Assembly: GCA_040770465.1 (NCBI GenBank)
Contig: JAXGJB010000001.1
Location: 64,001 to 128,000, forward strand
Reading direction: 5' to 3'
DNA from: Methanothrix sp.
Lineage (GTDB): Archaea > Halobacteriota > Methanosarcinia > Methanotrichales > Methanotrichaceae
DNA length: 64,000 nucleotides
In this document: positions 727 through 47,776 of the stretch, one piece after another
Numbering within the stretch: the stretch's first letter is position 1
How the letters are laid out: each line of letters opens with the position of its first letter
Program-made: the position numbers and the translations under genes
Notes under the pieces: generated by a model
Seen by the model: the letters and a program-made list of their open reading frames with translations, nothing else
What the model was told of the DNA's origin: nothing
Database searches by the model: none

Positions 727-1500
727 GTGGTTGACGCATCAGTTGTTTTTGTACCTCTGATCATAGTATTGCTGATACTCTACCAGGGGATAAGGATACC
801 CCGGGAGTACGAGCGGCTCGTCGTCTTCAGGCTGGGCCGGTACAGCGGGATCAAGGGGCCGGGGATCACCATCATCATACCGGTGATCGATAGAGCAATC
901 ACCATGGACCTGCGGGTGGTGACGATCGACGTCCAGAAGCAGGCGGTCATCACCAGGGACAACGTGACCGTGGACGTGGACGCCGTCCTCTATTATCGGG
1001 TCGTCGACCCCGACAGGGCGGTCATCCAGGTCGAGAACTACAGGGTTGCGACAAGCCTCCTCGCCCAGACGACCCTGAGGGACGTCCTCGGCGAGATCGA
1101 GCTCGACGACCTCCTATCGAAGCGAGAGGAGCTGAACGTCAAGCTCCAGGAGATCCTGGATCGGCAGACCGACCCCTGGGGTATCAAGGTCACTGCCGTC
1201 ACCCTCCGGGACGTGAGCCTTCCCGAGTCGATGCTCAGGGCCATCGCCAAGCAGGCCGAGGCCGAGAGGGAGAAGAGGTCGAGGATAATCCTCGCAGACG
1301 GCGAGTTTCAGGCTTCCGAGAGGATGGTTGATGCGGCGAAGCTCTATCAGGGAGCGCCTGTGGCCATCAAGCTGAGGGAGCTTCAGACCCTGGCCGAGAT
1401 AGCGAGGGAGAAGAACCTGATCGTAGTCACCTCCGGCGGCGAGGTCGGCGAGGCGACGGGAACGGTGGCGGGGCTCACCAAGGCCTTCGGTGAGGTATGA
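727..1500 (+). CDS. SPFH/band-7 (stomatin-like, slipin) membrane protein
   Basis: N-terminal TM, EYERLVVFRLG, ITRDNVTVDVDAV, AQTTLR, AEAERE. Confidence 0.93.
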   Translation: MVDASVVFVPLIIVLLILYQGIRIPREYERLVVFRLGRYSGIKGPGITIIIPVIDRAITMDLRVVTIDVQKQAVITRDNVTVDVDAVLYYRVVDPDRAVIQVENYRVATSLLAQTTLRDVLGEIELDDLLSKREELNVKLQEILDRQTDPWGIKVTAVTLRDVSLPESMLRAIAKQAEAEREKRSRIILADGEFQASERMVDAAKLYQGAPVAIKLRELQTLAEIAREKNLIVVTSGGEVGEATGTVAGLTKAFGEV

Positions 1501-2837
1501 AAAGATCAAGATCGGAGGGTTCGGCCTTGGCATCGGCATCGACCTCGCCCCTCTCCGGTCCGCCCCTCTCTTTTATCGTTCTGGCCGCCATCGCCGTCCT
1601 ATGCCTGGCGACCCCGGCCCTCGGCGAGCCTTCTGTGATGGTCGTCGCCCTGGACGACGCCATCACACCGGCAAGCGATGACATCGTCGCCGAGGCGATC
1701 GTCGAGGCGGAGGGGCGGGGGTGCGAGGCCCTGGTGATCACCCTGGACACGCCGGGCGGTGGCCTTTCCGAGACGAAGGAGATCACGAGCCTCATCGAGA
1801 GGACGAGCCTTCCCGTCATCGGGTACGTCTACCCCTCCGGCGCCACCGCCTGGTCTGCGGGGACGATCATCCTCCTCTCCTCGGACATCGCCGCCATGGT
1901 CCCGGGGACGATCATCGGCTCCGCCCAGCCGGTCCAGATCGGGCCGACGGGGACTGAGCCCGTCAATGACACCAAGGTGATAAACGCCGTCGTCGCCCTC
2001 GCCGAGGAGAAGGCGAGGACGAAAGGGAGGAACACCACGGCGGCCCGGGAGTTTGTAACAAGTAACCTCAACCTCAACGCCGAGGACGCCCTAAAATTCG
2101 GGGTCATCGAGGTCGTCAGCCCGAACCTCGAGTCCCTGCTCGACGACGTCGACGGCATGGAGGCGAAGAACCGCACGCTCGCCACCAGCGGCGCCGAGAT
2201 CGTCCGCTTCGTTCCGAGCTTCAGGCTCCAGGTCCTGGCCGTCCTCTCAGATCCCCTGCTGGCGGGGCTCCTCCTGATCGTCGGCCTCTACGCCCTCATC
2301 TTCGGCCTATCGAATCCGGGCCTGGGTGCTGAGCTGGTGGGCGTCATGACCCTGGCCCTCGGCCTCATAGGCCTTGGCTTTTCGGTGAACCTGGGCGCCC
2401 TCTTCCTGATCATCCTGGGGCTCGTCCTCCTCCTGGTTGAGCTGAACAGCCCCGGGTTCGGCCTGATGGGCGCGGCTGGGCTCGCCTGCATGATCGTCGG
2501 GTCGGTCCTCCTCGTCCCCATAGGCTCGACCGACTGGTACACCCCCGCCGAGTACAAGATGGACGCCTTCGTCGCCCTGGTCGTCCCCTCGCTCGTCATC
2601 GGGGCGTTCTTCGTCTTCGCCCTCTACAAGGTGGCGGAGGCGAAAAGAAGGCCCACCTACTCCGAGGTTATGGAGAGGGAGGTCGCAGAGGTCCTGGAGC
2701 GGATCGACCCGCGGGGGCACGTCATCTACAACGGCGAGTACTGGGCCGCCGAGTCTGAGGAGCCGATCGAGGCCGGGGAGACGGTCGAGGTGGTGGGGAA
2801 GGAGAGGATGGTGCTGAAGGTGAGGCGGAAGGGGTAG
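1497..2837 (+). CDS. nfeD: NfeD (stomatin-operon partner) membrane serine protease
   Basis: LDTPGG, AWSAG, IGSAQP ClpP-like domain, TM bundle, C-terminal OB fold (GEYWAA); 4-nt overlap with the stomatin gene. Confidence 0.9.
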   Translation: MKRSRSEGSALASASTSPLSGPPLSFIVLAAIAVLCLATPALGEPSVMVVALDDAITPASDDIVAEAIVEAEGRGCEALVITLDTPGGGLSETKEITSLIERTSLPVIGYVYPSGATAWSAGTIILLSSDIAAMVPGTIIGSAQPVQIGPTGTEPVNDTKVINAVVALAEEKARTKGRNTTAAREFVTSNLNLNAEDALKFGVIEVVSPNLESLLDDVDGMEAKNRTLATSGAEIVRFVPSFRLQVLAVLSDPLLAGLLLIVGLYALIFGLSNPGLGAELVGVMTLALGLIGLGFSVNLGALFLIILGLVLLLVELNSPGFGLMGAAGLACMIVGSVLLVPIGSTDWYTPAEYKMDAFVALVVPSLVIGAFFVFALYKVAEAKRRPTYSEVMEREVAEVLERIDPRGHVIYNGEYWAAESEEPIEAGETVEVVGKERMVLKVRRKG

Positions 2838-3026
2838 GCGCGTGGAGGCGCGAGGTGGTGCGGGCTCGTGGCAGGCCTGGCCCTCTCACCACCGTTTTTG
2901 GGCGATCGCCGGGCGGCGCTAGACCTGATTGGCAGAAGTCTCGCACAGGGATCTGAGTCGTCAAAACTCGCGCCCCTTCCCGATTGACGAAACCTTTATG
3001 ATAAATGGGAACATTCGATAGCCTCA

Positions 3027-5636
3027 GTGAAAGACTTCTTTATCAGCTACACCAGCGCCGACGAAAAATGGGCAACGTGGATAGCCTGGCAGCTAGAGGT
3101 GGCGGGATACACCACCATCCTCCAGGCCTGGGATTTTCGGCCAGCGCACAACTTCATGATGGAGATGGATGAAGCCTCCAAAAAAACAGAAAGAACGATA
3201 GCCATTCTATCTCCTGATTATTTCGAATCCGACTTCTGTAAATTGGAGGCGTTTACCGCTCTCGTCGAAGATCCAGCGAGCAGGGCGGGGAAGCTGCTTC
3301 CGATACGAGTAAGAGAATTTGAGAAGAAGGGTCTTATGAGGTCAATCGTTTACATCGACTTGATGGGGCTGGAGGAAGAAGCAGCAAATAAGGCCCTCCT
3401 TGACGGTGTCAAGTTCGATCGGGTGCCGTCGCCGCCGCCGGGCTTCCCAGGCTTGCGGTCAGTGACGGAAAAGCCGCGTTTTCCTGGAGCTCTGCCGGAC
3501 GTCTGGAACGTCCCTTTTAACCGAAACCCTAACTTCACAGGCCGGAGATCCCTTTTGACCGATCTTCACGCAGCTCTGAACTCCGGTCAATACGCCGCTC
3601 TGACTCAGGCGATAGTCGGCCTCGGCGGCGTGGGCAAGACCCAGTTGGCGCTGGAGTACGTCTATAGCTACATCGACGACTACGAGATCGTCTGGTGGCT
3701 GCGATCTGAAGAGCCATCGACCCTGGTCGCCGATTACGTCGGCCTCGCCGCGGCTCTGAATCTGCCGGAGAGCCGCCTCGCAGATCAGAATATCGTCGTC
3801 GAGGCCGTAAGGCGCAAGCTCGGCCAGCTCGAAGGCTGGCTTCTGATATTCGATAACGCCGCGAAACCTGAACGTGTCGATCCTTACCTGCCCCAAGGAG
3901 GCCGGGGTCATGTGATTATCACCTCCCGGAATCCAAACTGGGGCGGTACCGCAAAGTCCCTCCCCGTCAACGTCTTTAGCCGGGACGAGTCGATTGAGTT
4001 CCTTTGTAAGAGAACCAGGCAGCAAGACGGCGCCGACGCTCTTGCTGACGCTCTTGGCGACCTGCCCCTCGCCCTTGAGCAAGCTGGGGCGTATATCGAT
4101 AGTACTATGATTACGCTTGCAGACTACCTCAAAAGGTTCCAACAAAAGAAAAATCAAATATTAAAGCGCTACAATCCTATCGCTTATTCCGGCACTGTAG
4201 GTACAACTTGGGAAATCTCATTCCAGCAGCTCCAAAATGAGTCTACTGTAGGCGCTAATATGCTCAACCTCATAGCGTTCCTAGCCTCTGACAACATACC
4301 TAAATCACTTCTCATAGAGGGAGCACTGGATCTTTTTGACCCCCTAGAAGCCGCAGCTTTAGCTATCATTGCCTTAGTTAATCCGGATGAAGGCATAAAA
4401 TCGCTAATCGATCCAATTAAGATTGACGATGCCATAGCGGCACTGAAAAAGTACTCGCTTGTGACTGTGACATACGATTACCTATCTGTCCACAAGCTTG
4501 TTCAGACTTCTACTCGCAATAGGATGGTCGAGGACGAAAAGACGAGGTGGGCCAAGGCTGCAATTCTGCTCATGAATAACACCTTTCCCAGAGAAAGCTA
4601 TGACATCCGGAAATGGCCTAAATGCTCGCTCTTATTACCCCACGCCTTAGTATCAGTGGACCATGCAATAACGCATAAAGTTGCTCCTGAAGCTGTAGCC
4701 AGCCTTTTAAATGAGGTTGGAATTTACCTACAAGAATTAGCTGATTATGCCAGGGCAAAGTTGGCCTTCGAGCGGACCCTTCGTATTCGCAAGCAGGTAC
4801 ATGGCTCTGACCATCCGGATGTGGCCATTGGGGCTAATAACCTTGGTGTATTATTACTAAAGATTAACGACCTACAAGGCGCAGTTAAATATTTCGAAGA
4901 GGCCCTGAGGATCTTCGAGAAAGAATACGGCCCGGATCATCCTAAATTGGGCGGTGTAATCAATAACATATCCGCGGCTCAGTTCGAAATGGGAAACTTC
5001 AAAGGTGCCAAGAAGAATGTTGTTAAGGCTATGAAGATCCATATGAAGTCGTTTGGCACAAATTCTGCTGAAGTGGCTAGCGACCTCAATAATCTCGGTT
5101 CAATCATGTGGAAAATGAAAAACTTTAGAAGTGCCAAAAAGATTCTTGAGCGTGCTCTCAAAATCGATGAGAACGTGTTCGGTCCCGACCATCCATCCGT
5201 AGCTAGGGATGCCAACAACCTCGGCCTAGTCCTACATGCTCTCTTAGAATATGAGAACGCAAAAAATTATCATGAGATTGCGATGCGTATTGAAAAGAAG
5301 CTGTACGGTGCCGACCATCCATACGTGGCCAGGGATGCCAACAACCTTGGCTCGGTTCTCGAAGATATGGGCGATCTGGAGAAAGCGAAGAATTATTACG
5401 AGCAAGCTATGCTTATAAATACGAAAGTATACGGTCCAGACAGCCGCGAAGTTGCGATGAACCTCAACAACCTCGGCAAGGTCCTGAATAGCATTGGCGA
5501 CCCTGCCGGCACCAAAAATTCTTTCGAGAGTGCATTAAAGATATTCCGAGAGATTCTGGGAGACGCTCATCCTGACACAGTGAAGGCACGAAATAATCTT
5601 GAGACTATAGATCGCTGCCTTAGAAGTAGATCTTGA
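3027..5636 (+). CDS. TIR - NB-ARC (STAND ATPase) - TPR protein (NLR-like, FxsT-like architecture)
   Basis: TIR_2 DFFISY...SPDYFESDFCKLE; Walker A GLGGVGKT; Walker B WLLIFDNA; IITSR; DLPLAL; about 7 repeats of 42 aa (HPxVAxxxNNLG). Confidence 0.9.
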   Translation: MKDFFISYTSADEKWATWIAWQLEVAGYTTILQAWDFRPAHNFMMEMDEASKKTERTIAILSPDYFESDFCKLEAFTALVEDPASRAGKLLPIRVREFEKKGLMRSIVYIDLMGLEEEAANKALLDGVKFDRVPSPPPGFPGLRSVTEKPRFPGALPDVWNVPFNRNPNFTGRRSLLTDLHAALNSGQYAALTQAIVGLGGVGKTQLALEYVYSYIDDYEIVWWLRSEEPSTLVADYVGLAAALNLPESRLADQNIVVEAVRRKLGQLEGWLLIFDNAAKPERVDPYLPQGGRGHVIITSRNPNWGGTAKSLPVNVFSRDESIEFLCKRTRQQDGADALADALGDLPLALEQAGAYIDSTMITLADYLKRFQQKKNQILKRYNPIAYSGTVGTTWEISFQQLQNESTVGANMLNLIAFLASDNIPKSLLIEGALDLFDPLEAAALAIIALVNPDEGIKSLIDPIKIDDAIAALKKYSLVTVTYDYLSVHKLVQTSTRNRMVEDEKTRWAKAAILLMNNTFPRESYDIRKWPKCSLLLPHALVSVDHAITHKVAPEAVASLLNEVGIYLQELADYARAKLAFERTLRIRKQVHGSDHPDVAIGANNLGVLLLKINDLQGAVKYFEEALRIFEKEYGPDHPKLGGVINNISAAQFEMGNFKGAKKNVVKAMKIHMKSFGTNSAEVASDLNNLGSIMWKMKNFRSAKKILERALKIDENVFGPDHPSVARDANNLGLVLHALLEYENAKNYHEIAMRIEKKLYGADHPYVARDANNLGSVLEDMGDLEKAKNYYEQAMLINTKVYGPDSREVAMNLNNLGKVLNSIGDPAGTKNSFESALKIFREILGDAHPDTVKARNNLETIDRCLRSRS

Positions 5637-5756
5637 ACGACAGCTATTTCGATCGCGTCTCCCCTTCCCCCATCCCACACTAAGCCGAATGCTATTACCT
5701 TCTTTCCTGAGATCAATAACCTTTAAACAATCCCCCGCCTTACCCTCCCCTCATCC

Positions 5757-7826
5757 ATGGTCGAAGATCCCGTTGCGAAGTGGGAGGAGTTCATCAGGTC
5801 CAGGTACTGGGACGAGCTGTTGGAGCTCGCCGACTCCTACCCCCTCCGCCGAAGCCTAGTCATCAAGTTCCCCGACGTCGACCGGTACGACCCGGAGTTC
5901 GCCGACGAGCTTTTGGAGCGGCCCGAGCCCCTCCTGGAGGCGGCCGAGACCGCCCTCCTGGAGATCGATCTGCCCATCGACGTCGTCTTAGAGAAGGCTC
6001 ACTTCCGGATAGTGGGGCTTCCCCGAAGGTACAAGACGAGCGAGCTTCGGTCCGATCACATCGGCCGGCTCATCGCCCTGGAGGGGCTGGTGCGGACGGT
6101 GACCGAGGTGCGGCCGAAAGTGATCTCGGCGGCCTTCGAGTGCCAGAGGTGCGGCCACCTCTTCTACAAGGAGCAGACCACCTCCAAGTTCCAGGAGCCC
6201 TACGACTGCCCCAACGAGGCCTGCGACCGGCGAGGCCCCTTCAAGCTGCTCCTGGACAGGTCAAGGTTCGTCGACGCCCAGAACGTCCGGGTCCAGGAGT
6301 CCCCCGAGGAGCTCCGGGGCGGCGAGCAGCCCCAGACCCTCGACGTCCAGCTCGAAGACGACCTGACGGGGATGATCTACCCCGGCGACCGGGTCGTGAT
6401 CAACGGGGCTCTTCGGTCATATCAGAGGACGACTCAGACCGGGAAGTCGACATACTTCGATCTGTTCCTCGAAGGAAACTCCATCGAGATGATGGAGCAA
6501 GAGTTCGAGGAGATCGACATCAAGGCAGAAGACGAGCGGCTGATAAGAGAGCTTGCCGGCGACCCCATGATCTACGACAAGGTCAAAAGGTCCATCGCCC
6601 CCTCCATCTACGGCTACGACGAGGTGAAGGAGGCCCTGGGGTTACAGCTATTCTCCGGCGTCTCCAAGGGCCTCCCCGACGGGACCAGGATCCGAGGCGA
6701 CATCCACATCCTCCTCGTCGGCGACCCCGGCATCGCAAAAAGCCAGCTCCTCAGGTACATCTCCAAGCTCTCGCCCCGGGGGATCTACACCTCGGGGAAG
6801 AGCTCCACCTCGGCGGGTCTGACCGCGACGGCCGTCAAGGACGAGCTCGGCGACGGCCGCTGGACCATCGAGGCGGGAGCGCTGGTCCTGGCGGACAAGG
6901 GGATCGCCTGCATCGACGAGATGGACAAGATGAGAAGCGAAGACCGGTCCGCCCTCCACGAGGCGATGGAGCAGCAGACGATCAGCGTCGCGAAAGCCGG
7001 GGTGATGGCGACCCTCAAGTCGCGATGCGCCCTCCTGGCTGCCGCGAACCCCAAGTTCGGCCGCTTCGACAAGTACGAGGGGATAGCCCAGCAGATCAAC
7101 CTCTCCCCCGCCCTCATGTCCCGGTTCGATCTGATCTTCGTCCTCACCGACGAGCCTAGCGACGCCCGCGACTCCCAGATCGCCCACCACATCGGCCAGA
7201 CCACCTACGCCGGCGAGATCTCGTCGCGGGGCGACAGGTCGAGAGAGGAGCTGGAGGCGGTGATGGATGTGATCCGCCCCGCCATCGAGCCCGAGGTCCT
7301 AAGAAAGTACATCGCCTACGCCCGAAAGAACGTCTTTCCCGTCCTCTCCGACGAGGCGAGAGAGAGGCTCGAAGGCTACTACGTCAGCCTCCGAAAGCAG
7401 GGCCAGGACTCAAACAAGCCCGTCCCGGTGACGGCAAGACAGCTTGAAGCCCTCTTCAGGCTAAGCGAATCGAGCGCGAGGCTCCGTCTCAGCGACGAGA
7501 TCACCGGCGGCGACGCCGAACGGGTGATCAGGATCGTCGAGTCCTGCCTCCGGCAGGTGGGGGTCGACCCCGAGACCGGCCTCCTCGACGCCGACGTCCT
7601 GGCGGTGGGGATCAGCAAGAGCACCCGGGACAAGACGAGGCTCGTCCTCGACCTCATAAAAGAGCTGACAAAAGAGCACCAGGGCCCCGCCCCCCTGGAG
7701 GCGGTCCTCGACGGGGCCGAGGCGAAGCTCGCTATGGAGAGACATAAAGCCGAAGAGATCATAAAGAGGCTCAGGACAAACGGCGAGATCTTCGAGCCGA
7801 GACCCGGCTATCTGAAGCTTCCATGA
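5757..7826 (+). CDS. mcm: Replicative helicase MCM
   Basis: Zn-finger CQRC..CPNEAC, GDPGIAKS, IDEMDK, SRFD; no intein. Confidence 0.97.
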   Translation: MVEDPVAKWEEFIRSRYWDELLELADSYPLRRSLVIKFPDVDRYDPEFADELLERPEPLLEAAETALLEIDLPIDVVLEKAHFRIVGLPRRYKTSELRSDHIGRLIALEGLVRTVTEVRPKVISAAFECQRCGHLFYKEQTTSKFQEPYDCPNEACDRRGPFKLLLDRSRFVDAQNVRVQESPEELRGGEQPQTLDVQLEDDLTGMIYPGDRVVINGALRSYQRTTQTGKSTYFDLFLEGNSIEMMEQEFEEIDIKAEDERLIRELAGDPMIYDKVKRSIAPSIYGYDEVKEALGLQLFSGVSKGLPDGTRIRGDIHILLVGDPGIAKSQLLRYISKLSPRGIYTSGKSSTSAGLTATAVKDELGDGRWTIEAGALVLADKGIACIDEMDKMRSEDRSALHEAMEQQTISVAKAGVMATLKSRCALLAAANPKFGRFDKYEGIAQQINLSPALMSRFDLIFVLTDEPSDARDSQIAHHIGQTTYAGEISSRGDRSREELEAVMDVIRPAIEPEVLRKYIAYARKNVFPVLSDEARERLEGYYVSLRKQGQDSNKPVPVTARQLEALFRLSESSARLRLSDEITGGDAERVIRIVESCLRQVGVDPETGLLDADVLAVGISKSTRDKTRLVLDLIKELTKEHQGPAPLEAVLDGAEAKLAMERHKAEEIIKRLRTNGEIFEPRPGYLKLP

Positions 7827-45651: not shown

Positions 45652-45841
45652 GGGGGTGTGTAGGCGGCGGGAGGTGAAAAAGGCTGTGGAGGTTACAGGA
45701 GTAGATGTTATGTCTATTGCCGAGATTCCAAAATCTAACTGATCTGAAGTTATGCAGATAACATATAAATATTTAATAATATAACTAACTTGTATCGGGG
45801 GCGTTAACGATATAAGCGTTCTCGTCAATCTCGAAGTGGCT

Positions 45842-46810
45842 ATGAGCGAAACCATTAATGACGAAATAATTTGGACGACTCAATCGAGCTTGGACCCAGA
45901 AGTCAAGCCGCTTAAGAATATTCTCATCACTTGCGACTACTCTAGCCAATATTTTGATTCTTTGATTATTTGTGGTGATGCTAAAGAAGAACTCAAAAAA
46001 TTTCCGGATAATCATTTTCAATGCTGTATCACAAGTCCGCCCTATTGGGGACTTCGAGATTATGGCATTCCTCATCAAATTGGAGGCGAGCCAAAACTTG
46101 ACGATTACGTAACTAATTTGGTTGAAGTTTTCAGAGAAGTGAGACGTACACTATCCGATGATGGTACATTATGGCTAAATATTGGGGATTCTTATACGAG
46201 CGGAAACAGAACCTGGAGAGATCCAGATAAAAAAAATCCTGCACGAGGTATGGATTATAGGCCACCTACACCCAGTGGATTAAAATCCAAGGATCTTATT
46301 GGAGTACCATGGAGATTGGCTTTTGCACTGCAATCGGATGGTTGGTTTTTGCGATCAGATATAATATGGCATAAGCCTAATTGCCAACCTGAATCGGTTA
46401 AAGATCGGCCTACAAGATCCCACGAATACTTATTCCTGCTTACAAAATCAGAGAGATATTTATATAACTATGAGGATCTTATGGAGCCCTCTAAGGACAG
46501 AAGGGGTCTGCGAAATCGTAGGACCGTATGGTCCATAAAAACAGAGCCATTTAAGTACTCACACTTTGCTGTTTTTCCTGAGGAACTTATCAAACCATGT
46601 ATATTGGGTGGAAGCAATAGGGGTGATATGGTTTTAGACCCCTTTTTTGGATCTGGGACTGTAGGAATTGTAGGTTTAAAATTGAATCGTAGATTTGTTG
46701 GTATAGAATTAAATCCAGAATTTATTGAAATTGCTCGAAGAAGATTTATTGATGAACATCTAAGCATATCACCAGCGATCAAGAATTATCATTGCAGGAG
46801 GGATATTTAA
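45842..46810 (+). CDS. N4-cytosine DNA methyltransferase, beta class (M.Cfr9I/XmaI/SmaI-like)
   Basis: TSPPYWGLRDY precedes DPFFGSGT; DKKNPAR, KDLIGVPWRLAFALQ, PESVKDRPTRSHE as recalled for CCCGGG m4C MTases. Confidence 0.88.
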   Translation: MSETINDEIIWTTQSSLDPEVKPLKNILITCDYSSQYFDSLIICGDAKEELKKFPDNHFQCCITSPPYWGLRDYGIPHQIGGEPKLDDYVTNLVEVFREVRRTLSDDGTLWLNIGDSYTSGNRTWRDPDKKNPARGMDYRPPTPSGLKSKDLIGVPWRLAFALQSDGWFLRSDIIWHKPNCQPESVKDRPTRSHEYLFLLTKSERYLYNYEDLMEPSKDRRGLRNRRTVWSIKTEPFKYSHFAVFPEELIKPCILGGSNRGDMVLDPFFGSGTVGIVGLKLNRRFVGIELNPEFIEIARRRFIDEHLSISPAIKNYHCRRDI

Positions 46811-47776
46811 TTGACTGGCCAAAGGTATCAAGTGCTGGCGCCTGATATTCAAATTGAGTTTTATTATAGATTGAGATATCTTAATGATAGATACTTGCTA
46901 GATGCTTTGAAGGAAACAGTAAGTAAGTTAGATATTAGAAAAATAGATGATGACCTATCCAATTATGTTGATCCTATATGCTTAAAAAAAGTTGCATCTT
47001 TCGGAATAAGAGGTGAGATATTTTTCCCCGTCCCTTATATAATCGAAGCAAACCCAAAGTTGCTGGGATATTATCGGTTGCTACTAGGAATATCACAAAA
47101 AAATTTTTATTCAAAAGAGCATTTTTCAGGGTTCAAGCCGTTGGAAGATCGAGGAAAGATATCTTCAGATGTAAAACCCCGTATCGAGGATTTGTGCACG
47201 AGCTTGGTTGGAACATCTGAAATATTAATAAGAGAAATTGATATGATTTCACTATCAATGGTCCGGGACTTGCAGCTTTTAACATTAGGAGGACAGTTAA
47301 GAGGCGGGATTAATAACAAAATAGGCGAAATAGCTAAACAGATGGTTTTTGATATGATAAGAGATATAACAGAGCCTTACATCAAAAATGTTAAGGATGA
47401 TTCGATCGAGATCTTAAATGACTCAAACCGTAAAGTAATCATTAAATTCTCAGGTGATCCTGATATCAGCATAACAGAAACGATTGGCGCCACAAATCGT
47501 CCGCTTGTAGCTATCGAAATAAAAGGTGGTTACGATTATTCTAACATTTATAATAGACTTGGCGAGGCTGAGAAGAGCCATCAAACTGCTAAAGATAATG
47601 GCTTTACCGAATTTTGGACTATTATCCGAGTTGATGTAGACATCAATAGGGCAAAAATAAAGACGCCTACTACGAACAAGTTTTTTAATATAAATAAGAT
47701 TCAAAATCCTGATGAGGAAGAATATCACTTGTTCAGGGATTTGTTGAGTTCGATGTTGAGCATTCAGATAAATTAA
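46811..47776 (+). CDS. Type II restriction endonuclease, XcyI/Cfr9I-like
   Basis: Directly follows the MTase; LLGYYRLLLG, LTLGGQLRGG.NN, PD...IEIKGG (PD-(D/E)xK), NRLGEAEKSH. Confidence 0.8.
   Translation: MTGQRYQVLAPDIQIEFYYRLRYLNDRYLLDALKETVSKLDIRKIDDDLSNYVDPICLKKVASFGIRGEIFFPVPYIIEANPKLLGYYRLLLGISQKNFYSKEHFSGFKPLEDRGKISSDVKPRIEDLCTSLVGTSEILIREIDMISLSMVRDLQLLTLGGQLRGGINNKIGEIAKQMVFDMIRDITEPYIKNVKDDSIEILNDSNRKVIIKFSGDPDISITETIGATNRPLVAIEIKGGYDYSNIYNRLGEAEKSHQTAKDNGFTEFWTIIRVDVDINRAKIKTPTTNKFFNINKIQNPDEEEYHLFRDLLSSMLSIQIN

Follow-up and report, generated by a model that had tools for sequence, protein, structure and literature searches.

The gene described here lies on the forward strand of a 64,000-nucleotide (nt) window of Methanothrix sp. 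DNA (GenBank assembly GCA_040770465.1, contig JAXGJB010000001.1, positions 64,001 to 128,000). Coordinates refer to this window unless another contig is named. It is a single open reading frame (ORF) at 3027..5636, which begins with GTG, is intact throughout and encodes 869 amino acids plus a stop. The start is well placed because the N-terminal VKDFFISY coincides with the MKDFFISY start of the homologues. The product joins a TIR domain, a STAND-type nucleotide-binding switch and a TPR array in one chain, and we regard it as a probable immune receptor of the NLR type. The features of the ORF are the following.

3027..5636, forward strand: whole ORF, TIR, NB-ARC-type STAND ATPase, winged helix/DUF7779 and TPR (ORF list, Pfam, NCBIfam, structure model)
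3027..3416, forward strand: TIR domain, residues 1-130, predicted NADase effector (Pfam TIR_2, model)
3246..3248, forward strand: codon of E74, the Glu at the catalytic position (F70-x3-E74, helix 71-81; homologue alignments)
3417..3506, forward strand: proline-rich linker, residues 131-160 (conserved sequence, low model confidence)
3507..4016, forward strand: nucleotide-binding domain (NBD), residues 161-330 (motifs, Pfam NB-ARC, structural matches)
4017..4166, forward strand: helical domain 1 (HD1), residues 331-380, with the GxP motif (motif, conserved residues)
4230..4538, forward strand: winged-helix/DUF7779 region, residues 402-504, with the MHD-like SVHKLVQ (H489) (Pfam DUF7779, 31.8 bits)
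4686..5633, forward strand: TPR sensor array, residues 554-869, seven 42-residue repeats of the kinesin-light-chain type and a cap helix (Pfam, model)

The TIR assignment is supported by Pfam TIR_2 (residues 4-120, 100.4 bits against a cut-off of 28) and by sequence and profile matches to TIR domains in the Protein Data Bank (PDB). The region is modeled as a beta-alpha fold with a per-residue confidence (pLDDT) of 64-90. The motif SDFCKLE spans residues 68-74 and ends on the glutamate at the catalytic position, E74. The aromatic-x3-E pattern of helix alphaC is present, with F70 four residues ahead of E74. This glutamate is invariant in 50 of 50 full-length homologues and in all 33 TIR domains cut from named genomes, and in the family-profile alignment it pairs with the Glu of nWteyE (a W-x3-E motif) in the solved bacterial TIR 7uxr. 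A profile of the 33 family TIRs matches the solved AbTIR, PdTIR, TcpB, SARM1, ROQ1, RUN1, RPP1, SPARTA TIR and Cat1, which include known NAD+ hydrolases. The linker that follows is poorly modeled (pLDDT below 50 at residues 131-145); its residues R132, P141 and P153 are invariant in the 50 full-length homologues.

The central part carries the motifs of the AP-ATPase/NB-ARC branch of the STAND ATPases, and conservation in these motifs was scored over the same 50 homologues. The motif FTGRR occupies residues 170-174. Walker A is GLGGVGKT at 198-205, with G198, G201, G203, K204 and T205 invariant in all 50; Walker B is WLLIFDNA at 271-278, with D276 invariant. Sensor I (VIITSRN, 296-302) holds the sensor-I Arg, R301, which, like T299 and S300, is conserved in at least 90%. 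The segment GDLPLALEQA (344-353), in which L346, P347, L348, A349 and L350 are invariant, contains the GxP (GLPLA-type) motif. H489 of SVHKLVQ (487-493), conserved in at least 90%, is the MHD-like winged-helix histidine. Walker A, Walker B with the sensor-I Arg, the GxP motif with the winged-helix His and a fold that runs from NBD through HD1 to a winged-helix domain (WHD) are thus all present. A paralogue on contig C41 of the same genome passes the Pfam NB-ARC model with 26.3 bits.

The full-length AlphaFold model has a pLDDT of 86.5 and a predicted template-modeling score (pTM) of 0.75; for a model of residues 1-545 the pLDDT is 82.1. The best Foldseek match of the latter is the plant TIR-NLR RPP1, aligned over 566-575 columns across TIR and NB-ARC (E 5e-12). 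Further matches are Apaf-1 and CED-4, then the NRC, Sr35, ZAR1 and ROQ1 resistosomes, the phage sensor Avs3, the STAND-TPR protein 6mfv and MalT. The top matches (RPP1, Apaf-1, CED-4, NRC and ROQ1) all have a probability of 1.00, with E values from 5e-12 to 1e-7.

The C-terminus matches kinesin-light-chain TPRs by sequence (E 1e-26), and Pfam TPR_12 and TPR_10 each find six stretches in it (E 2.9e-73 and 9.1e-55). In the AlphaFold model seven helix pairs begin at residues 554, 597, 639, 681, 723, 765 and 807, a period of exactly 42 from residue 597 on, and a cap helix follows at 849-868. Tandem Repeats Finder detected no DNA-level repeat in 3000-5700; the seven units are therefore old and diverged. 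A preliminary description of this DNA, made from the letters alone, had noted a TIR domain with a Glu at the usual catalytic position, intact Walker A and B motifs and about seven TPR repeats of 42 residues, and had proposed profile searches and structure prediction as a check. All three observations stand, the last with seven helix pairs of which the final six start 42 residues apart, and the check recovered both the Pfam and NCBIfam domains and an NLR-type fold.

Base composition changes along the gene. The GC fraction is 0.45-0.47 over 4001-5750 and 0.61-0.67 in the flanks. At third codon positions (GC3) the whole gene has 0.554, against 0.89 for the neighboring nfeD and 0.88 for mcm; this puts it at the 10.5th percentile among 964 ORFs with 300 or more amino acids. 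Residues 1-360 are encoded with a GC3 of 0.63-0.67, the rest of the gene with 0.48-0.49 and the TPR array with 0.48. Identity to other proteins also differs by module. The TIR is 84% identical to the metagenome protein P0006 and 49-63% identical to the others compared. The NBD is 77-82% identical to the rest of its eight-row clade (congeners G002 and G010 and five metagenome proteins), and residues 331-869 are only 40-58% identical to all proteins compared. A search with residues 361-869 (8000 candidates scored) gave no non-self identity above 49% among the matches listed, which were the best 120 of 4389 with E ≤ 0.001. We read the gene as an older recombinant, in which the effector and switch halves would be of local Methanothrix descent; for the sensor half, no close relative is among the matches listed.

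The gene is placed between two housekeeping genes, and the features around it are as follows.

727-1500: SPFH/Band_7 gene, upstream of nfeD
1497..2837, forward strand: nfeD, left flank; its stop codon is the left edge of the variable site
2986..3006, forward strand: putative archaeal promoter, a purine-rich BRE-like gacgaaa and then a TATA-like cctttatgataaat (read from the sequence)
5637..5756, forward strand: spacer with the conserved mcm promoter; right edge of the variable site (alignment)
5757..7826, forward strand: mcm, right flank, housekeeping (Pfam)

All 16 genomes of the genus have mcm, which is 91-98% identical across the 15 congeners, whereas the closest congener copy of the TIR-STAND-TPR gene is 60-63% identical. 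DNA upstream of mcm was taken from 14 of the 15 congeners, since the G005 contig begins inside mcm. The informative ones carry the following genes at this site.

G002: TIR-NOD-TPR gene (NOD, nucleotide-binding oligomerization domain) upstream of mcm, truncated at the contig end, with 57-82% identity depending on the module
G010: the last ~60 TPR residues only, before the contig end
G014: NOD-TPR gene, cut by the contig end
G015 (L061 3927-10052): TIR-NLR gene, gene for a 317-residue ThsA-like SIR2_2 protein (GC 0.38) and second TIR-NLR gene, directly upstream of mcm; both TIR-NLR genes are full
G007: gene for a 1779-residue DruE-like (Druantia-like) helicase (E 2e-137) and a type IIG restriction-modification (RM)-like gene
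G013: type I RM genes hsdM, hsdS and hsdR
G001: TPR protein, low-GC cargo, no defense-model match
G003: 337-residue ORF and 1093-residue TPR protein, low-GC cargo, no defense-model match
G011: pentapeptide-repeat protein, low-GC cargo, no defense-model match
G012: PI-PLC-X-domain protein, low-GC cargo, no defense-model match
G006 and G008: a Usp gene alone between nfeD and mcm

An NLR-type gene thus lies directly upstream of mcm in four of the 15 congeners (G002, G010, G014 and G015). Recognized NLR-type, DruE-like or RM genes occupy the site in six, other low-GC cargo in four and the Usp gene alone in two, where the site appears to be unoccupied; three (G004, G005 and G009) are uninformative. 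The G015 array may be a composite defense cassette. In its SIR2 protein, the similarity to ThsA is confined to the SIR2 part (profile positions 7-226 of 478) and does not include the signal-binding part.

In an alignment of 15 sequences (our genome and 14 congeners), the last ~50 nt of the spacer, with the mcm promoter, can be aligned in all 15, and homology is lost ~110-120 nt upstream of the mcm ATG. Contigs from two other studies track nfeD to 2829-2833 and then continue into unrelated sequence, and one public-run contig reaches the mcm ATG from unrelated sequence. Another contig, from an independent study, covers 5230-5767 with 0 differences; the allele therefore exists outside the source sample. 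Because the cargo differs among congeners and the contigs of other studies break at its edges, the nfeD-mcm interval is a variable hotspot enriched in defense genes. An approximately unbiased (AU) test rejected a single clade for all five mcm-site NOD modules (p-AU ~1e-126). We give this result little weight, since the group was chosen once the first tree had been seen and the query clade includes metagenome proteins that have neither a name nor an assigned locus.

Two further observations were made at the 5' end of mcm in congeners. In G003 (L060 ~582-650), a second copy of the mcm promoter and first 23 codons lies upstream of the real mcm. In G012 (L054 1734-1940), part of mcm lies upstream of the real gene, with 56% identity over residues 51-119. 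These pieces look like scars of recombination or integration and may hint at the route by which cargo enters.

The preliminary description had proposed that presence or absence at the nfeD-mcm locus be compared in relatives and had named universal vertical conservation as a finding that would speak against an immune role. The comparison shows a variable locus (NLR-type genes in four of 15 congeners, RM or DruE-like genes in two). The gene has atypical GC and is patchy, and the site holds RM, DruE-like and SIR2 genes in congeners, so universal conservation does not apply. The same description placed the gene in a methanogen, in agreement with the presence of mcrA in this genome (2.54 Mb in 66 contigs, 57.4% GC, estimated completeness 94.85%). 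Its statement that the gene sits alone is correct for the locus, where both neighbors are housekeeping genes, but not for the genome, which has at least four further NOD-TPR paralogues.

The genome has 17 matches to the family model NF040586, and four ORFs score above its cut-off. Three paralogues are ORFs of 864-1067 residues outside the window (C41 14529-17732, C43 19611-22205 and C53 3277-6072), whose N-termini resemble signals or membrane anchors. Where the TIR would be, they have a signal-like hydrophobic stretch, a Thr/Ser-rich segment of low complexity and a transmembrane-like helix, and they are possibly membrane-anchored NLR-like proteins. No Pfam domain was found in the N-terminal part of the C41 protein, the only one of the three that was scanned. 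A fourth paralogue of 561 residues (C55 5173-6858) is a NOD-TPR protein without an N-terminal effector. It scores 286 bits, just under the NF040586 cut-off, its GC of 0.655 is normal, and counterparts of 556-563 residues occur in most congeners; in contrast to the variable paralogues, it appears to belong to the conserved core. When the gene was compared with its own genome by blastn, the best paralogue match was 74% over 485 nt, and no sign of recent gene conversion was seen. In a FastTree phylogeny of NOD modules (119 rows), the TIR-type and membrane-type forms of the genus fall in one clade with a support of 96, which also takes in unnamed metagenome proteins and one Actinomycetota row. Exchange of N-terminal modules has thus taken place on a common NOD-TPR chassis. 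A rooted IQ-TREE of 36 NOD modules splits ingroup from outgroup at an SH-aLRT of 100.

The C41 paralogue also contains 9.6 tandem copies of a 126-bp unit with 86% match (L001 1121-2329). This is a recently expanded array of 42-residue TPRs, and it may be likened to the repeat dynamics of fungal NLRs. TIR_2 is found at four places in the genome. Two more low-GC TIR_2 proteins are encoded at C59 5192-6853 (553 residues, GC 0.35) and C35 30515-31705 (396 residues, GC 0.40), and their C-terminal parts have no Pfam match. Elsewhere in the window, at 45836-47776 on the forward strand, two adjoining low-GC ORFs (GC 0.35-0.39) seem to form a small type II RM island: one matches PF01555 (N6/N4 DNA methylase) at E 9e-53 and the other PF09571 (XcyI-type restriction endonuclease) at E 4e-104.

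The protein belongs to NCBIfam NF040586, "FxSxx-COOH system tetratricopeptide repeat protein" (fxsT), with 458.5 bits against a cut-off of 300. Of 8000 candidates scored in a large protein search, 5503 reached E ≤ 0.001. Full-length relatives among the matches listed are 39-60% identical, and the few with a name belong to Thermodesulfobacteriota, Tectomicrobia, Acetobacteraceae, Methanothrix and Methanosarcinaceae. In a scan of species-representative genomes, 602 candidate stretches were examined and 586 of them confirmed, in many bacterial phyla and in Methanothrix/Methanotrichaceae. Within the phylum, an even sample of 401 genomes gave 16 that pass the family cut-off and 38 that match at E ≤ 1e-30 (15 of 121 genera). 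Relatives are found on 104 plasmid records, nine of which cover at least 80% of the query. The best of these, annotated as fxsT, is on a conjugative plasmid of Prosthecochloris (Chlorobiaceae). Its neighbors there include a restriction endonuclease, a recombinase and a diversity-generating retroelement, and it too has no Fxs partners. A tblastn search of a phage collection gave 0 matches. The counts from the genome scan, the plasmids and the phylum sample show that the TIR-NB-ARC-TPR family is patchy and mobile. Computational descriptions of TIR-AP-ATPase-TPR proteins are given by Kaur et al. 2020 (PMC7159879), and of archaeal NLR-like proteins in the preprint of Dyrka et al. 2020 (10.1101/2020.01.06.895854). 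The architecture is already known and widely annotated; the gene adds one member, not a new kind of system.

Archaeal promoters have a defined spacing of BRE (the B recognition element) and TATA box, and the promoter call rests on this geometry. A TATA-like element preceded by a purine-rich stretch lies 25-40 nt upstream of the GTG, with the TATA-like element centered ~27 nt upstream. The position would fit a leaderless archaeal transcript. Contigs from two metatranscriptome libraries match the gene at 3145-3509, 3409-3652 and 5452-5618 with 0 differences. They span only parts of it (3145-3652 and 5452-5618) and show no start, strand or expression level, so they are a weak hint of expression. 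The libraries come from an anaerobic-digester study, which may also be the source of the DNA. Exact pieces of the gene are also present in runs of two further studies.

From these data, the gene probably encodes a single-protein NLR-like sensor-effector of the AP-ATPase/NB-ARC STAND branch, which would act in abortive-infection defense against viruses or mobile elements by depleting NAD+. At rest, the protein would be a closed, ADP-bound monomer, by analogy with Apaf-1 and plant NLRs. The C-terminal TPR array would bind a foreign protein, probably from an archaeal virus. Binding would lead to nucleotide exchange at the intact Walker A/B site and to oligomerization through the NOD. The oligomer would gather the N-terminal TIRs into active NADase sites around E74. 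Consumption of NAD+ would then stop the growth of the infected cell, or kill it, before the invader could reach other cells of the filament or of the population. As for its origin, the gene is an accessory cassette in the variable nfeD-mcm site and a mosaic, with no close relative of its sensor half among the matches listed.

A one-component NLR-like immune receptor with a TIR effector is the best-supported reading because the fold is closest to RPP1, Apaf-1 and CED-4, the catalytic-position Glu is invariant and the gene is not universally conserved; NADase activity, oligomerization and antiviral protection are the predicted parts of it. Published work on related proteins points the same way. 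The archaeal TIR protein TcpO is reported to deplete NAD+ in a Glu-dependent manner (PMC10022894), and an E. coli TIR-NLR to protect against phages (PMC9122126). A 2025 preprint that discarded TIR effectors likely to deplete NAD+ also set aside the TIRs of Avs and of stand-alone proteins (10.64898/2025.12.03.692087).

Several points weigh against this reading. The TIR departs from family residues conserved in at least 90% at four positions (G40A, W75A, F79L and C98F), and W75A adjoins E74, so that the activity of the TIR could be altered or weakened. The Pfam NB-ARC model (PF00931) aligns to residues 195-335 and misses its gathering score, with 21.4 bits against 23.5; this near miss of one model is outweighed by the motif and fold evidence. 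A scan of the protein with PADLOC-DB v2, a check that the preliminary description had suggested, matched no catalogued STAND-sensor model. It gave six weak matches to the TIR and TPR parts only (best PDLC01169, TPR, 8.5e-11). This database presumably contains Avs/AVAST, NLR-like and TIR-NLR models. The RNA evidence consists of assembled contigs of RNA libraries, which can hold DNA, and the 5' junction with nfeD is present in this assembly only. The hotspot is not purely defensive, as the cargo in four of the 15 congeners matched no defense model. In the literature searched, there is no paper on tests of TIR-NB-ARC-TPR family members in any archaeon, and similar proteins of filamentous prokaryotes have been proposed to serve in other conflicts or in cell death (10.1101/2020.01.06.895854; PMC7159879).

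This last proposal leads to the strongest alternative, which we nevertheless consider unlikely. The protein would be an NLR-like switch that is not antiviral and serves programmed cell death, kin recognition or allorecognition, or development in a filamentous, multicellular methanogen, its divergent alleles at a single locus being analogous to fungal het/NLR loci. The same two papers tie prokaryotic NLR-like proteins to multicellular lineages, the host genome is Methanothrix-like, divergent NOD lineages occupy the same site in congeners, and several paralogues carry swapped N-termini. However, RM and DruE-like genes at this site in congeners point to defense against mobile genetic elements, plasmid relatives adjoin restriction genes, and the analysis gave no hint of a self-derived ligand.

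It is less likely still, with perhaps a small chance, that the sensor is the same and the output differs: the TIR would make a cyclic ADP-ribose-type signal for a separate effector in the genome, as in Thoeris or a plant TIR-NLR (TNL). The family profile does match the signal-producing TIRs 7uxr, AbTIR, RUN1 and ROQ1, and a SIR2-domain gene lies between the two TIR-NLR copies in G015. At our locus, however, there is no partner gene between the two housekeeping neighbors, and the SIR2 protein of G015 lacks a match to the signal-binding part of ThsA. The ThsA1 model (PDLC00407) was not found in our genome at its 94.85% completeness; other Thoeris effector types were not searched for. The 2025 preprint, in which Avs and stand-alone TIRs were dropped along with effectors likely to deplete NAD+, also speaks against a separate effector.

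We think it improbable, more so than a separate effector, that this is a transferred gene that has become inactive or is decaying and has no present function. Its atypical GC, the four departures from near-invariant TIR residues and the internal stops of related copies in congeners G002, G015 and G004 would agree with decay. Against this, the frame of 869 codons is intact and keeps every catalytic and switch motif, the structure is modeled with confidence (pLDDT 86.5), and exact pieces of the gene recur in the runs of two further studies and in RNA libraries.

A role as fxsT in a system for FxSxx-COOH peptide maturation or in a vWA-MoxR ternary conflict system is very improbable and was rejected as the function: the NF040586 score and the actinobacterial TIR-AP-ATPase-TPR gene reported downstream of an FxSxx peptide system (PMC7159879) favor it, but the neighbors are SPFH, nfeD and mcm, the plasmid homologue likewise has no Fxs partners, and the FxsB radical-SAM/SPASM maturase was not found (the best TIGR04269 match in the genome lies on another contig and has 128.1 bits, with the cut-off at 370; the FxsA precursor, FxsC and the metallopeptidase were not searched for).

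The reading as an NLR-like immune receptor can be extended to the whole site, and here we are more tentative. The position upstream of mcm might be a genus-wide exchange point for immune cassettes in Methanothrix-like methanogens, at which diverged TIR-NLR lineages are kept and recombined by module, in the manner of a plant R-gene cluster or a fungal het locus. The present allele, with its orphan low-GC sensor half, might then recognize a protein of a methanogen virus and kill the infected cell of the filament through NAD+ depletion.

Experiments have established NLR-type immunity in plants, animals, fungi and bacteria. The literature searched contains no experimentally shown NLR-type immunity in archaea. 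If the protein does sense viruses and deplete NAD+, Archaea would have a first functional immune receptor of the NLR type, as far as that literature shows. The gene is an intact, fully motif-bearing example in an environmentally important lineage of acetoclastic-type methanogens of anaerobic digesters. A defined variable locus with natural alleles and paralogues (TIR-type, membrane-type and effector-less) offers a practical start for testing NLR-like virus sensing in archaea. The gene could also help to find viral triggers in a group whose viruses are poorly known. What is added here is the mcm-adjacent defense hotspot in the genus, the set of paralogues with swapped N-termini and the orphan sensor half; the supplements of the cited papers may list further archaeal family members.

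Among known systems, the proteins annotated as fxsT (TIR-AP-ATPase(NB-ARC)-TPR) share the three-part architecture and the motifs, and our protein scores above their family cut-off. It differs from them in that no FxsB partner was found, the gene is a stand-alone cassette between housekeeping genes, and the sensor half is at most 49% identical among the matches listed. In contrast to Thoeris, the locus has no ThsA-type effector, and the ThsA1 model PDLC00407 was not found in the same genome.

Avs/AVAST, bNACHT and the TIR-NLR of the E. coli P4 satellite are likewise single-protein sensor-effectors with N-terminal effectors, TIR included, and Avs3 (8dgc) is among the structural matches. The present protein differs from them in having an NB-ARC/Apaf-1-type NOD and not NACHT, an archaeal host and no match to a PADLOC STAND-sensor model. 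Plant TIR-NLRs have the same layout of N-terminal effector, central switch and C-terminal repeat sensor. They are the best structural matches over TIR and NB-ARC (RPP1, 7dfv/7crc, E 5e-12; ROQ1, 7jlv), and the catalytic-position Glu is kept. Compared with RPP1 and ROQ1, the identity is ~15%, the sensor is a TPR array where theirs is a leucine-rich repeat (LRR) with C-JID, and no EDS1-type pathway is expected here. The architecture shares the NBD-HD1-WHD fold, the GxP motif, the sensor-I Arg and the winged-helix His with Apaf-1 and CED-4, and differs from them in carrying a TIR in place of the CARD effector and a TPR in place of the WD40 sensor.

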